Origin: Escherichia phage naswa
Length of the DNA stretch: 64,000 bases
Direction: 5' to 3' (one strand)
Sequence record: MN850595.1
Shown one piece after another: positions 1,799-6,656 of this stretch (positions within the stretch are counted from its first letter, which is position 1; each line of letters opens with the position of its first letter). The notes below the pieces were generated by a model. The model saw nothing but the letters and a program-made list of their open reading frames with translations. It did no database searches and was not told the DNA's origin. The position numbers were made by a program, and so were the translations under genes.

Positions 1799-2365
1799 TT
1801 ATTCAAACTGCAATAGTAAGTCCACCACCGCGCTAGGTCTGTCAACAAATTCCCCAGGTCCACATGCCCACAGAGGGTATCCGTCTACATACCGCCAAAT
1901 CCAACCTGCAGTGTGGAGTTCGAGCAGGGCAGTACCGTCCTTACTGTCAACCACTCTTTCCCACAGTGTCGGGCAGCGAAGCTTGAGGATCGGATCCCCT
2001 CCCTTATACCCATCCATGTAGATACCCATTGCAAAGTTCAGCATCATCTTTTTGTGCACTGATCTTTTACTGAGGGTACTCATCACTTCCTCTTTGTGAA
2101 TGTTTGTAAGCTTCTCCTTGGCTACCCGCAGATCGTTGCAACCATTGTTCAGCAGATCTTCCAGACACTTGATCCGAAGGTCGTGAATGTCTTTGTCGTG
2201 TACCGTTGGCACAGGGTCGTAGCGGTATAGCACTGTTGATACAAGGTTGCTCGGGTGTGGGTCTGACAGCAACCCATAACCCCAATACTCTTCTGTATCT
2301 GAAAGGACAAGACACCCAATGTCTCTGTCAAGCTTTCCTGTGTTGTAAGCCACATTGACCGCCAT
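1799..2365 (-). CDS. hypothetical protein
   Basis: Track ORF 188 aa; no motif recognised. Confidence 0.5.
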   Translation of the reverse strand: MAVNVAYNTGKLDRDIGCLVLSDTEEYWGYGLLSDPHPSNLVSTVLYRYDPVPTVHDKDIHDLRIKCLEDLLNNGCNDLRVAKEKLTNIHKEEVMSTLSKRSVHKKMMLNFAMGIYMDGYKGGDPILKLRCPTLWERVVDSKDGTALLELHTAGWIWRYVDGYPLWACGPGEFVDRPSAVVDLLLQFE

Positions 2366-2367
2366 GA

Positions 2368-2613
2368 CTATAGCTCCACTAGCAAAGTGCTTTCAAAGTG
2401 ACGTTCATGCAGACCGTTGTAAGGGACCACTTCCACAACGCCATCACGGACATATGGGGCCATCATGGTGGTATAATCTCCAAACGGGTTGGTATTGTCA
2501 CTAACCACAACCACCTTCTGCCCTTCCTTGGCAGAGTGCCAAATAGATCTGCACTTCATCAGGTGTTCGAGAGCCCCAGGTAAAATTTTGTTACGTTCTT
2601 TACGGGTCTTCAT
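2368..2613 (-). CDS. hypothetical protein
   Basis: Track ORF 81 aa; compact spacing with flanking genes. Confidence 0.45.
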   Translation of the reverse strand: MKTRKERNKILPGALEHLMKCRSIWHSAKEGQKVVVVSDNTNPFGDYTTMMAPYVRDGVVEVVPYNGLHERHFESTLLVEL

Positions 2614-3059
2614 AACAGGTATAGCTCCTTATGAAAGTGATCTTTTAATTTCTCACTGAGAAACTTCTTGATACCTTCCTCTAAAGTGTTTTCGATGTAG
2701 TCCAGCTTAACTGCTTCGATGGACATATCATAGATCGCCAGCTCTAAGCTGTCAAGTCCCATCATAGCATGAACCATAAGATTTTCATCTTCAGATACAT
2801 TCAGGGGACTTCCTATAACATCTGGAGGCAGAATAGTTTCCCAATTATTCTGGGTGGTAGTTCTCCCTCCCTCTACTTTACGGCGCAGTTCGAATGTGTT
2901 CTTAGTGTAGAACACTTCATAAGAAACGATACGACTGTCGCTCTCGTAATAAACGAAGTTCAGGTAGGAGCCTAGCCGCAGTCGGCAAACTTCTACCCCA
3001 AACCATTGTTTCTTATAAGAATTCAGGCTAATGCTGTCGCATTCACGTTTGCTCAACAC
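2610..3059 (-). CDS. hypothetical protein
   Basis: Track ORF 149 aa; ATGA-type overlap with downstream gene. Confidence 0.5.
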   Translation of the reverse strand: MLSKRECDSISLNSYKKQWFGVEVCRLRLGSYLNFVYYESDSRIVSYEVFYTKNTFELRRKVEGGRTTTQNNWETILPPDVIGSPLNVSEDENLMVHAMMGLDSLELAIYDMSIEAVKLDYIENTLEEGIKKFLSEKLKDHFHKELYLL

Positions 3060-3075
3060 GGCTCTCTCCTTTTTG

Positions 3076-3312
3076 TTAATCTTCGTAAATCAGGATTTCT
3101 GCTTTAGGTTTTCGTGCTTTCATGTCCAGCTCTATCCAGTGCACCATAGCTGTTTCAAGAAAAACAGCCTGGATGCATCCGTCCTCAGCAGCGTGTCCTA
3201 GCAGCATAACAAGATCTTCTCCTTCGTCATCTGCATCACGAACATACAGAATCTCCCCGGGTTCAAAATCTTTAACAACCTGATTGTTGGATAATTTACG
3301 AATTTTCGCCAT
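3076..3312 (-). CDS. small protein, tandem paralogue family (member 4)
   Basis: 78 aa; shares basic N-terminus, 'PGEIL' core and acidic tail with the three genes upstream. Confidence 0.5.
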   Translation of the reverse strand: MAKIRKLSNNQVVKDFEPGEILYVRDADDEGEDLVMLLGHAAEDGCIQAVFLETAMVHWIELDMKARKPKAEILIYED

Positions 3313-3313
3313 A

Positions 3314-3577
3314 TTAGAAACCCTCTAAAAAGCTCTTGTAGAAAATAATTTCAGTATCTACACCAGTCACGATCTTATCGTTCCTGATTTCATCTGTAAG
3401 GTAGGTGTCAAAACGCAGAACCTGTGTGGTGTTGTCACACATCCACTCAGCTGTGACCATTGCGAAAATCTTAGCATCTTCATTATCTGGTGTGAATGTT
3501 ACCACCTCACCGCACTTAAACTTTTCGATAGGCTGAGTGTTAGCTTTCGGTTCTGCGATAGTGATTTTTGTGGTCAT
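3314..3577 (-). CDS. small protein, tandem paralogue family (member 3)
   Basis: 87 aa; 'CGEVVTF' core; stop/start abuts neighbours. Confidence 0.5.
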   Translation of the reverse strand: MTTKITIAEPKANTQPIEKFKCGEVVTFTPDNEDAKIFAMVTAEWMCDNTTQVLRFDTYLTDEIRNDKIVTGVDTEIIFYKSFLEGF

Positions 3578-3840
3578 TATTCTCCTCCTTCTTTTGAATA
3601 GCTTGTCTCTCCAAGGATGGTAATTTTGGTGTCAAGCTCTGTAACTTTCATGTTTGGCGGCAGATCGTACAACTCATTATTTTCTAAATCGAACCCCCAC
3701 ACACAATGTTCTCCTGTTTTGACAATCATAACTATGTTTTGAATGCCGTCTCCGTCGCAACTTACCACGGTCCCACACGGAAAGCTGTCTGCACGCTTTT
3801 TGTTCTTCACCTTAGAATTGAATACAATGCTGGTAGCCAT
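3577..3840 (-). CDS. small protein, tandem paralogue family (member 2)
   Basis: 87 aa; starts MAT..., 'CGTVVS' core, 'ILGE' near C-terminus; overlapping stop/start. Confidence 0.55.
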   Translation of the reverse strand: MATSIVFNSKVKNKKRADSFPCGTVVSCDGDGIQNIVMIVKTGEHCVWGFDLENNELYDLPPNMKVTELDTKITILGETSYSKEGGE

Positions 3841-4103
3841 TATTGTTCCTCCACCATAACTTCGCCAATAATTTCTATGCAGGCATCCATTTCTGTAACA
3901 ACCAAACTGTGAGGTAGTTCTACAAACACCTTTCTGAACAGGTCAAATACCCCAACATATATGTTTGCAGGATGTGATTTTACAACAAGTGCTGTATTCA
4001 CATCCCCAAGTTCATCAACAAACATCACCACAGTGCCTGGAGCTACTGAGGACAGATACTTCTTAGTTTTACGGTTTGATGCAAATTTTAACTCTGTTGC
4101 CAT
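3840..4103 (-). CDS. small protein, tandem paralogue family (member 1)
   Basis: 87 aa; starts MAT..., 'PGTVVM' core, 'IIGE' near C-terminus. Confidence 0.55.
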   Translation of the reverse strand: MATELKFASNRKTKKYLSSVAPGTVVMFVDELGDVNTALVVKSHPANIYVGVFDLFRKVFVELPHSLVVTEMDACIEIIGEVMVEEQ

Positions 4104-4118
4104 AAATAACCTCCTCTC

Positions 4119-5600
4119 TTACTTAGCGTACTCGATTAATTCCACAGTTTTACCAAAGCTCGGGATATAATTTTTATTATACCCCTCAGTGAGGACCCAT
4201 AGAGTATCGTACTTTTTCCACTTGTTGTCAACAACCTTTTGTTCAAAGTTATGCTCAAAGTATAGGTCGGTCAGGACGATGACATCTTTTGCATTAGGTA
4301 TGTTGGCATCCAGATACTCGAACACGCAAGCAGCTGTTGTGCCCCATGTTGAGTGGACCTCATAGTTGATCATCTCGTCTATGTTGCCGCGAGTGTATAC
4401 TTTAACCTCTCCAACCTCAGTTGACCAACAGAACATTGTAACCTTAAACTCTTTATACAGATTGCACAATCCGGTGATTTCATTGAACATTTTCTTTAAA
4501 GTTCTTTGAGAGATCGAGCCAGAAACGTCTAAAGCCACCACAATATCTATAGTGTTTTCCGGATTACGACCAGGAACAATAACGTGCTGGTTCTTGTTTA
4601 TAGCCCCAACTTTTCGCATTGTGCTGGTCAAAGACCCAGATCGGCGACCAGGTTTTCTGTAGGTCAGTTCGGCCTTTCTTTTAGACAACATACGTTGCTT
4701 AATGATGTCTATATAGTTGATTACAGGCTTACCTCTGTTCTTGACAAACTCACGCACCGCCTCAGGGCAACGGCCTCCGGACGCTTGCATTGCTGCCTCC
4801 AGCATATCACCAGAGTCCTGCATGGCCTGATCTTTATCAGATTGGCTGATTACAGGTTGTGGCTGATCATACCCCATAGCCTTTCCAAGATTATCACTGG
4901 TGCCACCGTTCCCACTCATGTGATCATCGGTTTGTCGCTTATCACTTTGAGAGTTCTCACCTTTACCGTTCTTACTTTTACCGTTATTCTGATCTCTTTG
5001 CTTATCAAGAACTGCATAAACGTTCTCAGCAATCCATCCATGAAACTTCATGTCGCAGTAGCAGCTGGCTAAGAAGCCAAAAGGCTTACCTTTCATGAAC
5101 GTAGTGCTTTTCCCCTTCGGGAAGAAAACACAAGGGGGTTTGCTAAAGTCAACCACAAGGCCTGTGTTGATAACGTGATCACAAGCAATATTGAACAGTT
5201 CCGGCTCAAAGCTTTTACCACGGACTAGGTGATCACAGATAATATGCCCCACCTCATGTGACAGAAGGAAGGCCACCTCTTTCACAGATTTTGGGGAATA
5301 GAAAACTTCAGCCATCTCAAACTGCTCGTCAGTTAGAGAAGCCTTAAGAATAGCCTTGCGCTCATCAGCCAATCCCATAATGAACTCAGGACTGTAATAG
5401 ATGCGTTTATGGTCGGTTGCCATGGTGGAGCACCATGTGTGGTTTTCTACGAACTGCAACCCTGACAGTAGTGTGCCATAAAACGGCAGCTTTTCAAGGA
5501 GATACATACGTGCAGCCTGCAACATTCTCAGGGCATCATCTTTCTGCGAGGCAATGATTTCTGAACTTCTGCTATCCATTAAAACTCCAGAAGGGGCCAT
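4119..5600 (-). CDS. metallopeptidase-like (HExxH) / VWA-domain protein
   Basis: 493 aa; 'HEVGH' zinc-peptidase motif in N-terminal half; 'VALDVSGSIS' (DxSxS MIDAS-like) in C-terminal half; Gly/Ser/Asp-rich linker. Confidence 0.65.
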   Translation of the reverse strand: MAPSGVLMDSRSSEIIASQKDDALRMLQAARMYLLEKLPFYGTLLSGLQFVENHTWCSTMATDHKRIYYSPEFIMGLADERKAILKASLTDEQFEMAEVFYSPKSVKEVAFLLSHEVGHIICDHLVRGKSFEPELFNIACDHVINTGLVVDFSKPPCVFFPKGKSTTFMKGKPFGFLASCYCDMKFHGWIAENVYAVLDKQRDQNNGKSKNGKGENSQSDKRQTDDHMSGNGGTSDNLGKAMGYDQPQPVISQSDKDQAMQDSGDMLEAAMQASGGRCPEAVREFVKNRGKPVINYIDIIKQRMLSKRKAELTYRKPGRRSGSLTSTMRKVGAINKNQHVIVPGRNPENTIDIVVALDVSGSISQRTLKKMFNEITGLCNLYKEFKVTMFCWSTEVGEVKVYTRGNIDEMINYEVHSTWGTTAACVFEYLDANIPNAKDVIVLTDLYFEHNFEQKVVDNKWKKYDTLWVLTEGYNKNYIPSFGKTVELIEYAK

Positions 5601-5612
5601 CGGCCCCTGTCA

Positions 5613-6656
5613 TTATTTAACGTGTTTGAAAATACCTGCCAACTCGGTCATTGTCATGCGGGTGGTCTTCATAAGATCTGTCATAGCTTTCTCCATAATT
5701 GGAGATACTACCATAAAGTTTCCTTTAGTGAAACCTTTATTCCAGTCGGTCACCAACAGGGGTTTAAGTCCAGCTCCAAGACGTTCACCAGTTAAAGCAC
5801 AGCATTTGCGAATATACGAACTCTTAAATTGGCTGAACGACAGATCAACTTTCATACCTACATCGTAGAACGTTTGACAATAGAAAGTGTAAGCTTTGGC
5901 AATCTCAACATCATCAGGTAGTGCAGGAACCTCTTCTGTAAGCTCCTCTTCGACCTCCTGAGTCTCTTTTTCCTCTTCATGCACCTGTTGCGTCATTTCT
6001 TCAATCTCTTCTGTGATAGGCTCGTTTACAATGTCGGAAATGTGCTTCTTGGGTGCACGATAAGTAACTTTAGACATCGGTAGCATATCTTCCTCCTCTT
6101 CTTCGTCAAAGAGTGCTAGTTTATCCTCTTCCGTTCCATATTGCAAGATGAAATCTTCAAAAGTATAATCACCTTTCAATTTCTCCATACGCTCTTCGCT
6201 CAGGTGGAGCATCATCTGCTGGACAATTTTTCGATCAGTTTCGTCTTTAATCAAGACTGCAGTCTTTTTATCTACCAGACAGTCCTTTAGAGAGTTGCAT
6301 CTCAATCCCACCACACAACAGTTATCAACCGCATAAGGACCTTCATCATCTATCCGCTCCAGAGATGGGTAGAAAGGATTCCCCAGCCCGTTTTCATCTG
6401 TGTGCATGTCAAAAGGTATAAGGGTATAGTCGCATACTCCATCTCCTAAAAGTTTTTTACCAAATAGGAGGTATTCTTCCCATGACAGGTCGAACTCTAT
6501 ATCTCGTTTCCGTGCGTTATTCTGTTTGCGTCTATATTTTTTGAGCAAGCGCTCTAACTCTTCTGGTGTATAATATTTTTCAAGATTCATGAGTCGTCTC
6601 TCGTGCTCTGTAAGTGAAGAAATCGTATCAATTGTCTCAACAGATGTCAACATCAA
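5613..6656 (-). CDS. hypothetical acidic protein (possible fusion of two modules)
   Basis: 347 aa; Glu-rich central region; in-frame internal ATG at 6077 preceded by GAGGAGG, encoding 'MSKVTYRA' shared with the plus-strand gene at 7921. Confidence 0.5.
   Translation of the reverse strand: MMLTSVETIDTISSLTEHERRLMNLEKYYTPEELERLLKKYRRKQNNARKRDIEFDLSWEEYLLFGKKLLGDGVCDYTLIPFDMHTDENGLGNPFYPSLERIDDEGPYAVDNCCVVGLRCNSLKDCLVDKKTAVLIKDETDRKIVQQMMLHLSEERMEKLKGDYTFEDFILQYGTEEDKLALFDEEEEEDMLPMSKVTYRAPKKHISDIVNEPITEEIEEMTQQVHEEEKETQEVEEELTEEVPALPDDVEIAKAYTFYCQTFYDVGMKVDLSFSQFKSSYIRKCCALTGERLGAGLKPLLVTDWNKGFTKGNFMVVSPIMEKAMTDLMKTTRMTMTELAGIFKHVK

Follow-up and report, generated by a model that had tools for sequence, protein, structure and literature searches.

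Our analysis confirms that four consecutive small reading frames of an rV5-like phage, here called A to D, are real, separately initiated genes. They encode diverged paralogs of a single family of small (~9-10 kDa), acidic proteins with a predicted beta-barrel fold. We hold with moderate confidence that they are old, tandemly duplicated and cassette-remodelled accessory early genes whose products likely bind host macromolecules. The preliminary description of this DNA had seen in them a locally amplified, diversifying family of the kind typical of host-interaction or anti-defence proteins. Such a role is plausible but unproven; it fits the genes because they lie in a predicted sigma-70 early unit and have an accessory distribution, while their rV5 orthologues are absent from virion tables and their Bas54 orthologues are dispensable in K-12.

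The gene array and its phage

Comparison of bases 2300-5700 of the window (the whole stretch of 64,000 nucleotides analysed here) with phage records returned 118 matches: two reach at least 99% identity, 95 lie at 95-99% and 21 at 90-95%. Almost all belong to rV5-like myophages of Escherichia (genus Vequintavirus), with 'Campylobacter phage C12' at 99.6% and Escherichia phage nomo at 99.4% as the best matches; the window belongs to a Vequintavirus, an rV5-like E. coli myophage. The genes A (3840..4103), B (3577..3840), C (3314..3577) and D (3076..3312) all lie on its minus strand, and their lengths of 87, 87, 87 and 78 aa bear out the earlier account of four head-to-tail minus-strand ORFs of 78-87 aa. 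The array is bounded upstream by a gene for a putative DUF2201 metallopeptidase with a VWA-like protein (4119..5600, minus strand; PF13203 at 4e-28, PF09967 at 6e-11), which corresponds to rV5 gp012/013 and bas54_0055, and downstream by a homologue of gp017 (2610..3059, minus strand; phrog_6790), which forms the other edge of the insertion slot. Every annotated relative lists each of the four ORFs as a 'hypothetical protein' gene of its own, as in Murica (gp13-16), where the gp13 CDS corresponds to A.

The genes had been described as joined without spacers through overlapping stops and starts, which is true in effect: the A/B and B/C junctions share one base (TAATG), but there are no 4-nt ATGA overlaps, and C and D stand one base apart (TAATATG). 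A Shine-Dalgarno (SD)-like site lies 5-8 nt 5' of every start. Read from the sequence, the minus-strand sites are AGGAGG for A (4110..4115), GGAGG for B (3848..3852), AGGAGG for C (3584..3589) and the SD-like GAGGG for D (3321..3325), the last three falling within the last codons of A, B and C, respectively. Translation would proceed serially across these closely spaced or overlapping stop/start junctions, with an SD site for each gene. The tail VEEQ of A is encoded by GTGGAGGAACAA, KEGGE of B by AAAGAAGGAGGAGAA and LEGF of C by TTAGAGGGTTTC, so that the tails of these three proteins are acidic partly because the SD site of the next gene is embedded there.

This bears on the protein features that had first linked the four genes. 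The acidic tail exists, but the tails of A-C are in part the SD site of the following gene and the whole predicted barrel is acidic, the remainder of each protein beyond its first 20 residues carrying a net charge of -7 to -9 (pI 4.5-5.0, within an overall span of 4.2-5.0). The basic N-terminus holds for A and B, with a net charge of +4 over those 20 residues, but C and D have merely +1. The common (P/C)G(T/E)(V/I)(V/L) core is found four times when all 475 ORFs of 40 aa or longer in the window (39,336 residues) are scanned, exactly in A-D and in register, at residue 22 in A, B and C and at residue 18 in D. G23 and I76 are the sole invariant residues across the four proteins.

Kinship and predicted fold of the four proteins

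Both pairwise and profile alignments indicate a similarity that goes beyond composition. A and B, judged by their sequences, are certainly paralogous (38% identity in BLASTP, E=4e-12). Against 2000 composition-preserving shuffles per pair, A-B reached z=16.7 and C-D z=6.7 (0/2000), B-C (3.4) and B-D (2.7) were marginal, and A-C and A-D were not significant, remaining at noise level. A profile HMM built solely from slot-1 proteins, namely A, B, their rV5 counterpart X (gp014), P0031 and P0032, placed C (E=1.5e-6, 23 bits) and D (E=8e-4, 14 bits) next below A and B in its ranking of the 475 window ORFs, and the best ORF after these four had E=0.48. When the same ABX profile was aligned with hhalign, it reached C with a probability of 92% (E=6.7e-7, 75 columns) and D with 69% (E=4.4e-5, 67 columns); a direct C-D comparison gave 2% and did not recover the relationship. 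P0032, the lone family member of a distant relative, resembles all of them (shuffle z of 7.6 to A, 7.3 to B, 14.8 to X, 5.0 to C and 7.0 to D), and HMMs made from C only and D only match it at E=0.0045 and 0.0072. Sequence comparison therefore places all four proteins in one homologous family, C and D as remote paralogs and D as the least certain member. We also considered gp018 (2368-2613, 81 aa) as a fifth member and rejected it, as its shuffle score was weak (z=3.1 against P0032) and its hhalign probability 0.2%.

PHROGs divides these proteins among three unrelated families of 'unknown function', phrog_10698 (A and B), phrog_12861 (C) and phrog_12046 (D), to which they show full-length matches with E values from 2e-42, that of A, to 8.5e-62; the HMM, hhalign and bridging P0032 results join the three here as one superfamily. 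It is a tiny superfamily, lineage-restricted to rV5-like phages. A word-indexed search of 5.8 billion clusters yielded 30 proteins, all of them variants or fragments of A, B, C or D. An exhaustive HMMER scan of 1.84 billion representative proteins gave 10 matches at E<=1e-3, with P0031 and P0032 as new members and a weakest match (P0033, a 4,459-aa protein, E=7.5e-4) that is probably spurious. A scan of IMG/VR with C found only two loci. Sequence searches of Pfam, NCBIfam and the PDB with A-D gave nothing significant, Pfam, NCBIfam and PHROGs held no functional match, and nothing on these genes was found in the literature on EdH4, Hachiman, EHEC defence islands and Vequintavirus RNA-seq.

AlphaFold2 predicts all-beta structures for both B (pLDDT 79.5, pTM 0.67) and D (pLDDT 80.1, pTM 0.69). 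These models consist of a short helical turn followed by five strands in identical order, with an additional long N-terminal strand in B, although the likeness of the two models is partly circular because one mixed alignment fed both. A search of BFVD with the B model retrieved an independent model of A (E=1.7e-7, TM 0.77) and an X-type protein (E=7.9e-6); cross-matches were weak, from the D model to A at E=9e-3 (TM 0.56-0.61) and from the B model to D at E=1.6e-2. Both models also retrieved a common set of uncharacterised phage proteins of 70-90 aa, at E ~1e-3 to 3e-2. N4 Gp21 and proteins of 172-1, SU7, ECBP2, LAMP, ES17 and Erwinia phage Cronus share the predicted fold (TM 0.5-0.7), but identity to these 70-90 aa proteins is 12-20%, with no link at the sequence level, and none of them is functionally named in the search output.

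Structural neighbours of the model include the KOW domain of Spt5, uL2, domain I of EF-P/eIF5A and the Tudor-like RNAP-binding domains of UvrD/PcrA and CarD. An assignment of the family to acidic small beta-barrels of the SH3/Tudor/KOW-like kind is reasonable on these models, but generic. A-D have no significant sequence match to the SH3-like barrels (Tudor, KOW, the uL2 C-terminal domain, EF-P/eIF5A domain I and UvrD/PcrA/CarD): compared with PDB sequences, the family profile gave E>=0.13, with weak matches to Spt5 KOW (E=0.16) and eS4 KOW (E=0.69). Unlike those domains, A-D do not conserve the KOW glycine pattern, carry an extra N-terminal strand or arm, and are free-standing and found in phages only. 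The aromatic cage by which Tudor domains read methyl-lysine or methyl-arginine has no conserved aromatic positions in A-D, so that this likeness is one of fold alone.

Copy number, cassette exchange and selection at the locus

Local amplification of the family is supported by its copy number across relatives, which is 0 in other Vequintavirinae genera, 1 in a distant metagenomic relative, 3 in rV5 and 4 in the window, with the family centred on this slot in rV5-like phages. Within Vequintavirus, 43 of the 117 records have the four-gene state with A+B (A at 90% identity or more; two matching places), and the other 74 have a three-gene state with a single slot-1 gene, X, which is ~40% identical to A and B. 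Each of the 117 records has one copy of C and one of D, both intact. In rV5, gp014 is X, gp015 is a protein identical to C and gp016 is the orthologue of D. Similarity between the window and the rV5 locus in blastn ends at 4089, 15 nt into A, and restarts at 3588, 11 nt before C, which means that a 500-nt A+B cassette (3589..4088, minus strand) replaces a 230-nt X cassette. More divergent contigs (L018-L020) carry a third haplotype, A' (56% identical to A) and B' (64% identical to B), followed by C and D.

X is equally far (35-44%) from A and from B in all three alignment segments, and its equidistance along the whole length led us to reject the idea that it is a recent A/B chimera formed by unequal crossover; A, B and X are three old lineages. 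Recent amplification is likewise ruled out, as the copies of A-D contain no direct or tandem repeat at the DNA level. No further family copies were found elsewhere in the 64-kb window.

Outside Vequintavirus, a distant rV5-like metagenomic contig has one member in the matching slot, in the order DUF2201, P0032, gp017-like. A local HMM scan of seven Vequintavirinae loci (L011-L017), from the five named genera Seunavirus, Avunavirus, Mydovirus, Henunavirus and Certrevirus and the unassigned phage A5-4, found no member near the locus, and in all of these DUF2201 abuts or overlaps the gp017 homologue. Solo members, X-like P0031 and C-like P0011, occupy other early-region positions in further metagenomic phages (L009, L021). 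The locus is also mosaic: between L018 and the window, C and D have 88-89% nucleotide identity while the flanking genes have 72-76%, and between Murica and the window D has 90% against 98-99.5% in the flanks. On this evidence the array arose by old tandem duplications in the slot between the DUF2201/VWA gene and gp017 in rV5-like phages, and was later remodelled by cassette exchange in slot 1 (A+B, A'+B' or X) and by mosaic C-D alleles.

Each orthologous group is under purifying selection. From Nei-Gojobori counts within the groups, pN/pS was 0.26-0.35 for A, 0.17-0.18 for B (0.00 in a pair with a single substitution), 0-0.13 for X, 0.00-0.07 for C and 0.00-0.16 for D. C shows 16-45 synonymous and 0-7.5 nonsynonymous differences between lineages, for example 16 and 0 between the window and rV5, and 43 and 6 between the window and L003. 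Purifying selection in every group implies that the paralogs are old and divergent, without relaxed or positive selection inside a lineage, and the variability of the locus stems from cassette replacement. The term 'diversifying' in the preliminary description thus holds for the slot-1 polymorphism, with its ~40% identical alternatives A+B, A'+B' and X, but sits badly with purifying selection, the lack of a DNA repeat and the single-copy state of C and D.

This kind of variation has a known parallel. T-even phages have hyperplastic regions with polymorphic cassettes of small genes, such as the internal protein (IP) loci IPI/II/III. As in those cassettes, a single fixed slot flanked by conserved genes holds different small genes in different phages, the boundaries of exchange fall in conserved gene ends or ribosome-binding sites, and the genes are accessory and non-essential. 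Unlike the T-even internal proteins, A-D have no family-wide capsid-targeting sequence, their rV5 orthologues are absent from virion tables, and they belong to a different fold and lineage.

Expression, dispensability and possible roles

A sigma-70-type promoter (TTGACA-17-TACGAT with TG; 6622..6650, minus strand), identical to rV5 P011, lies 5' of an Srd-like gene and heads the unit that contains the array. In rV5, genes 11-26 have been proposed to form a single transcription unit with the sigma-70 promoter P011, a further promoter P020 and the terminator t026 (PMC3606486). In the Murica annotation a hairpin resembling a terminator separates the Srd-like gene from DUF2201, and we found no Vequintavirus transcriptome in the literature. 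Early expression of A-D is thus inferred from predicted promoters, and the genes would probably be transcribed together with the Srd-like gene as infection begins, from a promoter of the host sigma-70 type.

Phage MaxBurger (Bas54, MZ501093) has the three-gene haplotype, with X (bas54_0054) in place of A+B, followed by bas54_0053, which is 100% identical to C of the window, and bas54_0052, the orthologue of D. Transposon insertions have been mapped in this phage in the HIDEN-SEQ preprint (10.1101/2025.11.20.689424), and the three genes were non-essential on E. coli K-12, with 17/17, 13/15 and 12/12 TA sites hit, respectively (10.1101/2025.11.20.689424). Neither was any of them significantly conditional in the one table that compares K-12 with a clinical isolate by resampling (its sheet is labelled CFE303 and its command line names a 311 sample), where the log2FC values are +0.46, +0.33 and -1.32 (q=0.68 for the last, D). 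Bas54 thus tolerates insertions in X and in its C and D orthologues under laboratory conditions, and the genes of the array would seem to be accessory, dispensable on laboratory E. coli yet retained by purifying selection. Under the reading that we favour, each barrel would most likely bind a host macromolecule stoichiometrically, in host takeover or counter-defence, and different paralogs would have different or variant targets.

A rival proposal, which we regard as possible though unlikely, is that A-D do not counter host defence but regulate phage or host gene expression, using a KOW/Tudor-like barrel and a basic N-terminal arm to bind RNAP, the ribosome or nucleic acid. The fold neighbours named above and the weak profile matches to the KOW domains of Spt5 and eS4 (E 0.16-0.69) point in this direction, as do the operon shared with an Srd-like anti-sigma factor and the basic first 20 residues of A and B. 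However, the fold match is generic, and the Pfam KOW profile (PF00467) does not match A-D at E<=1, the other Pfam matches being unrelated and weak. The strongly acidic barrels argue against direct binding of nucleic acid, there is no conserved aromatic cage, G23 and I76 alone being invariant, and the orthologues are non-essential.

We give a similarly low probability to a broader version of the favoured reading, in which the array serves as a modular toolkit for counter-defence or host takeover, each barrel neutralising a different host factor (a defence sensor, for example, or an RNAP- or ribosome-associated protein), and in which A+B/X is an arms-race polymorphism that sets strain range.

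It is less probable still that A-D serve as cofactors, adaptors or substrates of the adjoining MoxR ATPase and DUF2201-VWA pair. A starts 16 nt past the stop of DUF2201, and single-copy P0032 likewise directly follows DUF2201. In the related phage Bas54, which needs this pair to overcome a predicted defence system, MoxR has been reported as an anti-defence gene against that system, 'DS-28' (10.1101/2025.11.20.689424), and in the clinical-isolate table both the MoxR ATPase (log2FC -7.23, q=0) and DUF2201 (log2FC -2.20, q=0.009) are depleted and thus conditionally required, with similar trends for gp017 (log2FC -2.28, q=0.195) and D. Yet X and the C orthologue are undepleted there, and the trends of D and gp017 could be polar effects. 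Strict co-occurrence also fails, since DUF2201 occurs without a family member in the five genera and A5-4 (L011-L017), L009 and L021 have family members that are not next to DUF2201, and CR8 has an annotated ATPase directly upstream of DUF2201. We reject an obligate dependence on the pair, since co-occurrence and the HIDEN-SEQ table both speak against it.

The T-even parallel raises the further idea that A-D are internal virion proteins packaged and injected with the DNA. Besides the polymorphism of a cassette that has a fixed position and conserved gene ends, the N-terminus of C (MTTKITIAE) superficially resembles the T4 capsid-targeting sequence, which ends in IAE, and rV5 virions show a 9.7 kDa band in SDS-PAGE. 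Tryptic peptides of gp014-016 were nonetheless absent from the rV5 virion mass-spectrometry tables in which we sought them, the genes lie in a sigma-70-driven unit with the Srd-like gene and outside the late morphogenesis block, and the IAE-like N-terminus is found in C only. With no peptides in the virion tables and no N-terminal targeting motif common to the family, packaging of the T4 IP type is rejected and strikes us as highly improbable. Equally improbable, and strongly disfavoured, is that some of the four are decaying duplicates or chance ORFs: all are annotated as 'hypothetical' and their orthologues are non-essential in the laboratory, but every gene has a pN/pS well under 1, all 117 records retain intact ORFs, an SD site precedes each start and the models are confident (pLDDT ~80).

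Large lytic phages are well known to carry polymorphic arrays of small accessory early genes, and in this respect A-D look like ordinary accessory early genes and their novelty is modest. What is new is the unification of three PHROG families as one tandemly duplicated family with a predicted SH3-like beta-barrel fold, together with a cassette that cleanly takes one of two states, A+B or X, in phages that are nearly identical elsewhere. Vequintaviruses find wide use, both for biocontrol of E. coli O157 and within model phage collections (BASEL, EdH4), and their early genes are mostly 'hypothetical'. Purifying selection acts strongly on C and D although laboratory growth does not require their orthologues, and the natural A+B and X haplotypes make possible a direct comparison of host range or defence sensitivity. 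If the toolkit reading were true, one widespread class of inhibitor scaffold would take in the far more numerous 70-90 aa ORFans of similar structure that N4-like, Kuravirus and T4-like phages carry.

The DUF2201 neighbour and a MoxR candidate

On its upstream side, the array of four small paralogous genes (A to D) is adjoined by a minus-strand gene for a DUF2201 protein, a putative metallopeptidase with a VWA-like protein (4119-5600). In the sister phage Bas54, transposon data showed that DUF2201 was conditionally required in a clinical isolate (log2FC -2.20, q=0.009), as was MoxR (log2FC -7.23; 10.1101/2025.11.20.689424), and the Bas54 MoxR reportedly counteracts the predicted defence system DS-28 (10.1101/2025.11.20.689424). 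The supplementary sheet 'Data S6' of that study is headed 'resampling_K-12_vs_CFE303', but the two samples set against each other in its logged command line are BW and '311' (10.1101/2025.11.20.689424), so the isolate behind the table is ambiguous. A plus-strand ORF of 394 aa in our phage (9231-10415) is equal in length to the MoxR ATPase gene of Bas54, and its Pfam match to AAA_14 is weak (E=4e-4, under the cut-off).

Gene models, names and host labels

The DUF2201 gene is annotated in the rV5 reference (NC_011041) as two overlapping CDS, gp012 and gp013 (L002 1024-2485). It is a single intact ORF of 486-493 aa in the window and in most relatives, so the split points to a frameshift in the reference, or to an error in its sequencing. 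The start of the Srd-like gene (5613-6656, minus strand) also seems misplaced: the mechanical ORF opens at a TTG at 6656, and a predicted promoter (6650-6622, minus strand) falls inside it. The true start, within 6588-6656 (minus strand), is probably an ATG near 6590, matching rV5 gp011. In a distant rV5-like metagenomic phage (L006/L007), an IS605 OrfB/TnpB-like gene with a Cas12f1-like TNB domain (2119-3258) adjoins the divergent early promoter region, immediately upstream of that phage's Srd-like gene.

RefSeq and PHROG call both the Srd-like and DUF2201 genes 'HNH endonuclease', and gp017 (phrog_6790; 2610-3059, minus strand) 'tail protein'. All three genes lie in the predicted early unit, and these names look like propagated mis-annotations. 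Sixteen records (MG0656xx; C12, A135, C2, C15 and others) are named Campylobacter phage with C. jejuni as host; in the array region their identity to E. coli rV5-like phages reaches 99.6%. These host labels look doubtful; the phages may, for example, be E. coli phages brought along with the source material.

History of the C-D block

We compared genes C and D (3076-3577) with L001, L003 and the more divergent contig L018. Against the L018 lineage the block retains 88-89% nucleotide identity, whereas its neighbours retain 72-76%. The pattern is reversed against the near-identical phage Murica, where D is the less conserved (90%, against 98-99.5% for its neighbours). Synonymous divergence in C is near-saturated, with pS reaching 0.8, and the protein is almost unchanged. 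The C-D block has had a history other than that of its surroundings, and these contrasts with the flanks, together with the synonymous divergence of C, point to recombination among old alleles.
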